Assembly (NCBI GenBank): GCA_005888635.1
Contig: VBAW01000017.1
Location: 4,537 to 68,536 of the forward strand
Origin: Candidatus Bathyarchaeota archaeon
Lineage (GTDB): Archaea > Thermoproteota > Bathyarchaeia > 40CM-2-53-6
Length of the DNA stretch: 64,000 bases
Direction: 5' to 3'
This document shows, piece by piece, positions 4,849 to 29,152 of this stretch (positions within the stretch are counted from its first letter, which is position 1; each line of letters opens with the position of its first letter). The notes below the pieces were generated by a model that did no database searches, had not been told where the DNA came from, and saw only the letters and a program-made list of their open reading frames with translations. The position numbers and the translations under genes are program-made.

Positions 4849-4906
4849 CAGGCTGGGGAACAGACAACTGTGCTAGGATTCCCGATTTTTGGGGCGATGT
4901 TGGTTG

Positions 4907-5039
4907 TGGCGGGCCCGCCGGGAATTGAACCCGGGACAGCCGGGTGTCTTCCGCGAGGTAAAAGCTTCACCAGAGATAGCTCTTCCGGTGCTCTACCTCT
5001 TCAGGATCCCTGTTAGGAATCTGGCTGAGCTACGGGCCC
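4907..5039 (-). tRNA. tRNA-Lys (anticodon UUU) with three inferred introns and an encoded CCA
   Basis: Minus-strand exons reassemble to GGGCCCG TA GCTC AGCCAGGTA GAGC A CCGGG CTTTTAA CCCGG CTGTC CCGGG TTCAATT CCCGG CGGGCCC G CCA, 74 nt plus CCA. Inferred introns are 23 nt in the D-loop (about 5020-4998), 19 nt inside the anticodon stem (4984-4966) and 13 nt at canonical position 37/38 (4958-4946). The anticodon lies at 4962-4960. Confidence 0.8.
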
Positions 5040-5064
5040 GCGCGACGGCCGAGTTTGACCTGAT

Positions 5065-5072
5065 CTATATTA
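5065..5072 (-). promoter_or_regulatory. TATA-like box upstream of tRNA-Lys
   Basis: The minus strand reads TAATATAG, centred about 29 nt upstream of tRNA position 1 (5039). Comparable A/T boxes sit about 27-30 nt upstream of the other four tRNA genes. Confidence 0.35.
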
Positions 5073-5141
5073 GTTGATTTTCCAAACAAGACCAAGACGC
5101 TCTGTGAAAAAGCAAGTTGCCTCAACATTCGAGCCCTCAGA

Positions 5142-20208: not shown

Positions 20209-20337
20209 TGGCGGGCCCGCGGGGATTTGAACCCCGGACCTCTAGCCGGAGATTTTTCTCGAATCTCCTACAGCTGACTCCGATGGTGAAACCCCACTTA
20301 GGGGGCTGCCGCTCTATCCAGGCTGAGCTACGGGCCC
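20209..20337 (-). tRNA. Multi-intron tRNA, isotype unresolved (best parse gives loop CUUUCAA, Glu-UUC, tentative)
   Basis: On the minus strand the 5' part reads GGGCCCG TA GCTC AGCCTGGATA GAGC and the 3' part reads CGGGG TTCAAAT CCCCG CGGGCCC G CCA. Between them are 74 nt where 23 are expected. My parse is G GCAGC C [12 nt] TTTCA [11 nt CCATCGGAGTC] A GCTGT AG [28 nt] GTC. The 11-nt element resembles the 13-nt 37/38 intron of tRNA-Lys (CCTCGCGGAAGAC). Confidence 0.7.
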
Positions 20338-22872: not shown

Positions 22873-23418
22873 TTATTGGGATTGGAAAGTCTCAGGGTTC
22901 AACGTGTAGTAGACGATGTCTGTGCGCCGATCAATGACGGCCAACACCAGGTCCTTGCCATCCTTGTTTGCTTTCGCTGACAAAGTTGCGAGTTTTTCGA
23001 GTGTAGACTCTCCCCCCTCGAACACAATAGTTACAAGCCTTCTGACGGCTCCCTTACCGAAGGTTTCGAAATCGTAGCCCGCTTCTCCATCCCGGACCAA
23101 GTATCCCCGGTCCCGAAGGTCTCTGTAGACCAGATACTTTGTCCATATGGCGGGCTTCCCTACCGATAGCTTCGTCACCAGCTGCTGAAGCGACTTGGAC
23201 TGCTTGGTCTTCTCGTCCAAGACTTTGATCCTCTTCTTCTCAACGAGGTAGAAGGTTTCGTAGGGATTGAGTGTGATTCTGTCGTCGACTAGAGTTCCGA
23301 ACGCTTTCTCGCGGAGGTCCATCAGTTTCTCAGGTTCTCGGAGAAAGACTCCTCCCCTGGAAAGATAGGCCTCGATTGCCTCAACGATAACCGGTACTTG
23401 CTCGCTCTTGGTTTCCAA
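22873..23418 (-). CDS. tRNA-splicing endonuclease (EndA) family subunit, probably non-catalytic/structural
   Basis: Collinear with M. jannaschii EndA as I recall it: KYLVYRDLRDRGYLVRDG versus KYLVYKDLRTRGYIVKTG, and LVLAVIDRRTDIVYYTL versus LLIAIVDADGDIVYYNM. The positions aligning to catalytic Tyr115 and His125 read Phe (DFETF) and Arg/Leu (VRRLVTIV). The longest ORF reaches 23496, but the TTG at 23418 gives 181 aa, close to EndA size. It sits 24 nt upstream of hisS on the same strand. Confidence 0.65.
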   Translation of the reverse strand: METKSEQVPVIVEAIEAYLSRGGVFLREPEKLMDLREKAFGTLVDDRITLNPYETFYLVEKKRIKVLDEKTKQSKSLQQLVTKLSVGKPAIWTKYLVYRDLRDRGYLVRDGEAGYDFETFGKGAVRRLVTIVFEGGESTLEKLATLSAKANKDGKDLVLAVIDRRTDIVYYTLNPETFQSQ

Positions 23419-23452
23419 AGGGTTCCAGAAAGTCGAGCACGCGGACGGGCGG

Positions 23453-23460
23453 CTATAAAG
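23453..23460. promoter_or_regulatory. Possible shared TATA element between the divergent endA-like and mtnA genes
   Basis: CTATAAAG on the plus strand reads CTTTATAG on the minus strand. It lies about 40 nt from the mtnA ATG (23497) and about 37 nt from the proposed TTG (23418). Confidence 0.25.
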
Positions 23461-23496
23461 CCATTCAAATAGAAAGACGCGGCGACTAGAAATCAA

Positions 23497-29049: not shown

Positions 29050-29152
29050 TGGCGGGCCCGGTGGGATTCGAACCCACGATTTTGGGCTCTCTTCACTCTG
29101 AAATCGAAAGCTCCGAAGGCCCACGTCTTGGTCCTGGCTCGACTACGGGCCC
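29050..29152 (-). tRNA. tRNA-Arg (anticodon UCG) with a canonical 24-nt intron and an encoded CCA
   Basis: The minus strand reads GGGCCCG TA GTCG AGCCAGGACCA AGAC G TGGGC CTTCGG [24 nt, 29112-29089] A GCCCA AAATC GTGGG TTCGAAT CCCAC CGGGCCC G CCA. The intron 3' segment GAAG pairs with loop CTTC, as expected for a bulge-helix-bulge (BHB) splice motif. Confidence 0.85.

Follow-up and report, generated by a model that had tools for sequence, protein, structure and literature searches.

A tRNA-Lys(UUU) gene of a soil Bathyarchaeia genome interrupted by three BHB-type introns, with a predicted order of splicing

Can a stretch of DNA that reads as tRNA-Lys(UUU) only after three internal segments have been left out supply a cell with that tRNA, and are those segments introns? 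The question is raised by a locus at positions 4907..5039, minus strand, of a 64-kb window (the whole stretch of DNA that was analysed, C69:4537-68536 of host assembly G000). The host is a member of the soil Bathyarchaeia, and its genome was assembled from a metagenome (2.18 Mb in 159 contigs, 92% complete). The original prediction, of a tRNA-Lys(UUU) with introns in the D-loop, in the anticodon stem and at the canonical position, is borne out by our analysis: each of the three insertions has the properties of an archaeal BHB intron, and once they are taken out a tRNA-Lys(UUU) cloverleaf results. We consider it highly probable that the locus is a functional gene and the sole detectable one for tRNA-Lys(UUU) in this host, that its own promoter drives transcription of a 133-nt precursor, and that EndA and RtcB, acting on three BHB introns, turn this precursor into a 77-nt tRNA.

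The gene is easily overlooked. ARAGORN reported no tRNA in the whole 64-kb window and none in the unspliced gene, and an Rfam search of the whole window at the gathering score missed it, finding two other interrupted tRNAs (20212-20337 and 29053-29152). A local search with the Rfam tRNA model matched 4910-5039 (38.5 bits, E 1.3e-6), with inserts of 30 nt (model D-loop, 4) and 41 nt (model anticodon loop, 9). On the minus strand the gene runs from G1 at 5039 to the final A of an encoded CCA at 4907 (CCA at 4909-4907), and its acceptor strands read GGGCCCG on the 5' side and CGGGCCC, followed by discriminator G and the encoded CCA, on the 3' side. No further Lys(UUU) anticodon arm set in a tRNA context turned up when the 92%-complete assembly was searched. 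Upstream of the gene, at 5065..5082 on the minus strand, lies a promoter-like element, GAAAATCAACTAATATAG, in which a BRE-like purine-rich part followed by a TATA-like box (TAATATA, at -34 to -27 from the mature 5' end) can be read from the sequence. This element is kept in the closest orthologues (L001-L004, L009, L011 and L014) and fits a putative archaeal promoter of the tRNA-Lys(UUU) gene itself. On the opposite strand the whole tRNA gene is covered by a 62-codon ORF with a TTG start (window 4889-5077, plus strand), which is in all likelihood spurious and carries a risk of being miscalled as a gene.

The precursor is divided into four exons and three introns, all on the minus strand. Exon 1 (5039-5023, 17 nt) comprises the acceptor 5' strand, U8 and A9, the 5' strand of the D-stem and the D-loop bases A14-C17, and is followed by intron 1 (5022-4999, 24 nt), which lies in the D-loop between C17 and A17a. 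Exon 2 (4998-4985, 14 nt) continues with A17a-A21, the 3' strand of the D-stem, A26 and positions 27-30 (CCGG), and is separated by intron 2 (4984-4966, 19 nt, position 30/31) from exon 3 (4965-4959), the 7 nt GCUUUUA, which hold G31 and C32 U33 U34 U35 U36 A37 with the anticodon UUU. Intron 3 (4958-4946, 13 nt) occupies the canonical position 37/38, and exon 4 (4945-4907, 39 nt) supplies A38, the 3' strand of the anticodon stem, the variable loop CUGUC, the T-arm, the acceptor 3' strand, G and CCA. The spliced 77-nt product forms a perfect cloverleaf that ARAGORN calls tRNA-Lys(ttt), with a 7-nt anticodon loop CUUUUAA (U33, purine at 37), a T-loop UUCAAUU and the variable loop of a class I tRNA, features that identify it as tRNA-Lys(UUU). 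The 5-bp anticodon stem CCGGG/CCCGG is restored exactly by excising 19 nt at 30/31 and 13 nt at 37/38, as had been proposed. The D-loop insertion, previously given as 23 nt, is 24 nt long, in agreement with the length difference between precursor and product (133 - 77 = 56 = 24+19+13). Because "AG" stands at both ends of intron 1, three junction registers lead to one and the same mature D-loop, AGCCAGGUA; BHB geometry picks the most 5' of them (CC↓AGAU...GAAG↓AGG, 5022-4999; arrows mark cuts), and the junction first put forward, AGCCAG↓...↓GTA, is the most 3' register, so that the BHB cut falls 2 nt upstream of it with the mature sequence unchanged.

The scheme was compared with other ways of dividing the locus by removing BHB candidates recursively (at most four per product) and retaining the products of 70-92 nt, 21 in number. 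The product with 24, 19 and 13 nt removed was the only one of these with 7+4+5+5 = 21/21 stem pairs, and it has a D-loop of 9 nt, a variable loop of 5 nt and the loop CUUUUAA. The other 20 BHB-guided products formed 9-20 of the 21 stem pairs and had abnormal variable regions, so the search for a better exon assignment, which would have counted against the prediction, returned none. These results bear on the possibility that the exons are assigned differently, for instance with two introns only and the D-loop insertion retained as an expanded D-arm, or with another anticodon. Such a reading can point to the 2-nt ambiguity of the D-loop junction and to ARAGORN, which is permissive and also accepts a (24,19) product of 87 nt and a (24,21) product as Ala; in addition to the poorer stems and variable regions of the alternatives, it has to contend with a D-loop insertion that has a BHB and exon-intron covariation of its own and that is precisely absent from nine relatives and from the paralogous Lys(CUU) gene (all described below). 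We therefore give it only a slim chance and proceed with the three-intron assignment.

The cut sites of the three introns were evaluated by scanning all 13,237 candidate cut-site pairs in 4877-5069 for a geometry that combines a central helix of 4 bp with two outer helices and with two bulges of 3 nt, each cut after its second base. Intron 2 is the best of the 13,237 pairs (12/12 helix pairs) and intron 1 the second best (11/12). Intron 2 forms a full hBHBh' motif from the helices AGAG/CUUU, CACC/GGUG and AGAG/CUCU with the bulges GG↓A and AA↓G. In intron 1, the central helix UCAG/CUGA is flanked by the bulges CC↓A and AG↓A; one outer helix, UAGC/GGUA, has 3/4 pairs owing to a G-G mismatch, and the other, GAUU/GAUC, extends to a 6-bp hairpin (GAUUCC/GGGAUC). 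Intron 3 is arranged canonically: C32-U35 pair with GAAG of the intron (CUUU/GAAG) between the bulges UA↓C and AC↓A, and the motif is relaxed because the intron-internal helix is a single C-G pair. All three introns thus have 4/4 central pairs and 3-nt bulges, together with flanking helices of an hBHBh', hBH or HBh' arrangement, the exon helix of intron 3 being the anticodon stem, which forms only once intron 2 has been excised. A loose threshold was passed by 21 site pairs, compared with 16 ± 6 in shuffled sequences; weak motifs are therefore common and only the top scores carry weight, and the relaxed motif type of intron 3 also occurs by chance. The original prediction had placed a 13-nt intron near the lower size limit of a BHB substrate. 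This holds in that the minimum predicted among 90 archaeal genomes is 11 nt (Table S1, PMC3218864), yet the length is not unusual: in the same table the medians for Ile(GAU), Tyr, Thr(CGU) and Arg(CCU) are 12-13 nt, such introns are common, and a 13-nt intron is accordingly ordinary. Lys(UUU) introns in those genomes measure 14-36 nt.

Evidence independent of motif scoring was obtained from orthologues. A search of 40 related genomes and all species representatives returned 36 distinct orthologues, from Bathyarchaeia and Nitrososphaerales-labelled assemblies, in which the exons are nearly invariant and the insertions differ in length and sequence at the same positions (intron 1, 21-27 nt; intron 2, 17-42 nt; intron 3, 13-16 nt). 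The encoded CCA is conserved as well. Intron 1 is exactly absent in nine relatives (L015-L018, L026, L036, L040, L048 and L049), which read GCTCAG[C/T]CAGGTAGAGC, and introns 1 and 3 are both absent in two Nitrososphaerales-labelled genes (L024 and L035), which read GCTTTTAACCCGG. These natural intron-less alleles fix the intron borders independently of any motif. Introns 2 and 3 of L017, which is without intron 1, are almost identical to those of L006 and L012, which have it, and the same pattern is seen between L048 (without) and L039 (with); as the two cases belong to very different sequence groups, the alignments suggest at least two recent precise losses, or gains, of intron 1, with L015-L018 and L040/L048 as seemingly independent cases. 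A further orthologous tRNA-Lys(UUU) gene of Bathyarchaeia, L058:6784-6938 (DASRSU010000008.1), has a fourth intron of 17 nt at 48/49, with the central helix GGAG/CUCU, the outer helix CCCG/CGGG and the bulges UC↓A and AG↓A. Its other introns measure 24, 25 and 15 nt; when all four are removed, the remaining tRNA is 74 nt long and has an A49-C65 mismatch.

The orthologue alignment also reveals covariation between exons and introns. Across the 36 orthologues the helix cells of BHB1 and BHB2 are 99.3% paired, a figure that falls to 25-50% once the 3' partners are shifted by 1-3 columns, and the central helices of all three introns are 100% paired. Changes on both sides occur in five pairs of BHB1 and BHB2, and 0/500 shuffles reach the observed score, a count that is not a probability because the sequences are related. 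A change of C13 to U13 in the D-stem of three sequences is matched by a G to A change of the partner in intron 1, and the first two pairs of the intron's own helix in intron 2 are split 17:17 among the orthologues between A-U/G-C and G-C/A-U. In intron 3, the CUUU is fixed and faces either A or G, always with pairing preserved, and the closing C-G is kept in 33/34 sequences.

The anatomy, conservation and covariation established by these comparisons also weigh on two further explanations. One holds that the locus is a decaying tRNA pseudogene, out of use and laden with accumulated insertions. The failure of standard finders to detect the gene would agree with this, as would the incompleteness of the assembly (92%), in which another copy could be hidden; however, exons that are nearly invariant in 36 orthologues, next to insertions that vary and covary in their BHB helices, are difficult to reconcile with decay, and so are the conserved promoter-like element and encoded CCA, the position of the locus as the only Lys(UUU) gene found, and a genome in which most tRNA genes are similarly interrupted. 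We thus regard a pseudogene as very improbable. An origin of the insertions as mobile-element footprints or as an artefact of assembly, and not as spliced introns, is extremely improbable: although tRNA genes are common integration sites and the sequence comes from a metagenome assembly, 14 soil runs contain at least half of the words sampled from the stretch (12 of them at 0.89-1.00), the orthologues come from many independently assembled genomes, and the insertions are 13-24 nt long, are without terminal repeats and sit exactly in BHB motifs.

For a functional gene with three introns, the order in which these would leave the precursor was considered by folding. In the modelling of the pre-tRNA structure, which had been suggested as a check, unconstrained RNAfold draws BHB1, whereas the exact BHB2 and the mature cloverleaf are not drawn, the minimum extending CACC/GGUG through the BHB2 bulge. 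Owing to this mismatch, the folds were used for relative costs only. In constrained folds of the full precursor, BHB1 costs 2.6 kcal/mol above the unconstrained fold, BHB2 4.4 kcal/mol, the two together 7.0 kcal/mol and the core of BHB3 13.3 kcal/mol. When introns 1 and 2 are removed, the BHB3 constraint yields the cloverleaf plus BHB3 at a cost of 5.6 kcal/mol (−37.5 vs −43.1). Both strands of the D-stem are engaged in BHB1 and BHB2, U12-G15 by pairing with intron 1 and A21-G24 by pairing with C32-U35, so the precursor is not yet a cloverleaf; C32-U35 are needed for the central helix of intron 3 too, which makes BHB2 and BHB3 mutually exclusive. Because intron 3 has hardly any helix of its own and relies on the anticodon stem for its outer helix, it should become a good substrate only after intron 2 has been excised. 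On these thermodynamic models, intron 2 is predicted to leave before intron 3.

A maturation pathway can be proposed on this basis. Transcription from the gene's own promoter would yield the 133-nt precursor with its three BHB introns, and introns 1 and 2 would be presented in a fold without a D-stem, in which each D-stem strand pairs elsewhere and so builds a BHB. EndA would cut after the second base of each 3-nt bulge, and RtcB would then ligate the exons into the 77-nt tRNA, intron 3 becoming a good substrate once intron 2 is gone and the anticodon stem has formed. That the introns constitute an obligate maturation cascade, and that the 30/31 intron of tRNA-Lys is either one ancient intron or a strongly favoured insertion site common to Bathyarchaeia, Nitrososphaerales-labelled and DPANN-labelled assemblies, is a broader proposal that we put forward tentatively and consider doubtful.

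The presence of the enzyme genes is established in the host genome, which encodes both the endonuclease and the ligase of BHB splicing. There are two EndA paralogues, each with both EndA domains, and RtcB was found at 570 bits. One EndA paralogue (207 aa, PF01974 and PF02778) is encoded in the window itself, at 22873..23496 on the minus strand; the other, L067:1216-1785 on contig C17, is closest to the Aeropyrum pernix EndA chains 3P1Z_B and 3AJV_B (E 5e-45), the catalytic subunit of a heterotetramer. When the two paralogues are aligned, Y of "AVYEHG" and H of "IDHAP" in the C17 copy stand opposite F and R in the window copy, and this Y and H are presumably the catalytic Tyr and His of EndA. 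The substitutions make the window protein a probable non-catalytic (beta) structural subunit, and from the presence of two paralogues EndA is predicted to assemble, most probably, as an (alpha-beta)2 heterotetramer. Enzymes of the alpha2beta2 type are found in Crenarchaeota, Thaumarchaeota and Nanoarchaeota, which are also the groups with non-canonical and multiple introns (Yoshihisa 2014, PMC4090602).

Cleavage of the precursor by EndA is inferred from these features. Four RNA-labelled runs, available as assembled contigs, contained no joint across any intron, and their contigs do not cover the intron region. A 1504-nt contig of one run (X17) touches both ends of the gene, with other letters and a spacing near that of the unspliced gene; we read it as a relative's unspliced copy, perhaps of DNA, and it is neutral on splicing.

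The only other Lys gene found in the assembly, tRNA-Lys(CUU), lies outside the window (G000:C35:1380-1528, minus strand, 149 nt). It is interrupted by three BHB-type introns, of 29 nt at 9/10, 16 nt at 30/31 and 30 nt at 43/44, and has no 37/38 intron; its spliced 74-nt body plus CCA is called tRNA-Lys(ctt) by ARAGORN. The comparison with this gene, which had been recommended alongside the original prediction, favours the D-loop intron: the D-arm of tRNA-Lys(CUU) is uninterrupted and identical to the spliced D-arm of tRNA-Lys(UUU). An intron at 30/31 is found here too, and this is the sole intron position common to the two host Lys genes. Two other candidates for tRNA-Lys(CUU) were rejected, G000:C94:15694-15819 for a poor parse and G000:C101:9661-9768 because its anticodon loop is CAU. 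The latter, a plus-strand tRNA 108 nt long, shares the acceptor stem, and its D-loop is likewise interrupted, by about 20 nt near the site of intron 1.

Interruption extends to most tRNA genes of this genome. A stringent search anchored on acceptor stem and T-arm gave 25 candidates, 22 of which span 98-188 nt. A genome-wide census of BHB-guided splicing judged by ARAGORN was discarded as too permissive, with many conflicting isotypes, and a strict cloverleaf score was used in its place. In the resulting crude census, 11 genes were cleanly resolved, with 0, 1, 2 and 3 introns in 1, 4, 3 and 3 of them, respectively (mean 1.7), and Ala(GGC) and Phe(GAA) also have three introns. The tRNA genes of the soil Bathyarchaeia, an abundant and uncultured group, are thereby seen to be as heavily interrupted as those of Pyrobaculum. 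Since standard finders miss interrupted genes, the tRNA counts by which assembled genomes of the group are judged will be too low. The gain and loss of BHB introns can be studied to advantage in the many orthologues, given their intron-less alleles and exon-intron covariation.

The tRNA-Lys(UUU) gene adds no new principle and belongs to a known archaeal gene type. In Thermoproteales, introns at non-canonical positions, 30/31 among them, and three-intron genes have already been described (PMC4090602, PMC4033280), an example being tRNA-Pro(UGG) of Pyrobaculum islandicum, with introns at 25/26, 37/38 and 56/57 (Sugahara 2007/2008 as cited in PMC4090602, PMC4033280). Like these, the present gene combines one canonical with two non-canonical BHB or relaxed-BHB introns, in a host with tRNA genes interrupted genome-wide and with two EndA paralogues, as is typical for (alpha-beta)2 enzymes; it differs in its host, a soil Bathyarchaeia member, and in its set of positions (D-loop 17/17a, 30/31 and 37/38). 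Asgard archaea likewise have many tRNA genes with two or more introns, canonical BHB boundaries and D-arm introns missed by annotators, although they belong to a different phylum and reach up to five introns per gene (bioRxiv 10.64898/2026.10.13.758758), in contrast to three in tRNA-Lys(UUU) here. A literature search found no publication on tRNA introns in Bathyarchaeia.

[quoted passage not shown] 2011, PMC3218864). Isotype, junction and the canonical hBHBh' motif at it are shared with the present gene, whereas the halves there are separately transcribed and joined in trans; here the sequence is contiguous, the 19-nt intron is removed in cis and the anticodon is UUU. A split, trans-spliced tRNA-Lys is ruled out for the Bathyarchaeia locus by exons that are all contiguous within 133 nt, so that only the junction position is shared.

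In a set of DPANN-type tRNA-Lys genes from assemblies labelled Nanobdellati/Nanohalarchaeota or "archaeon" (L022:2550-2679, L041:5513-5657, L042:7591-7722, L044:3668-3796, L060:2293-2420 and L062:2523-2658), the 30/31 intron opens with a strictly conserved GCUCUUAA right after CCGG. Such a gene accordingly reads as a CUU and then a UUU anticodon cassette before one shared 3' stem, and might yield both Lys isoacceptors by alternative BHB splicing; the intron might instead be left over from a duplication of the anticodon loop. When five of these small assemblies were searched with a loose pattern, a separate anticodon arm for Lys(CUU) was not found, and the CUU route would place a C-A mismatch in the central helix. 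Three other loci, taken with their flanks (L025:3138-3191, L031:3159-3197 and L059:6776-6815), contain a tRNA-Lys(UUU) gene with a 30/31 intron and a T-loop intron, and a Geothermarchaeota-labelled one (L051:205-262, with flanks) combines the 30/31 intron with an insertion after position 9. Across these lineages, the 30/31 intron is the constant element.
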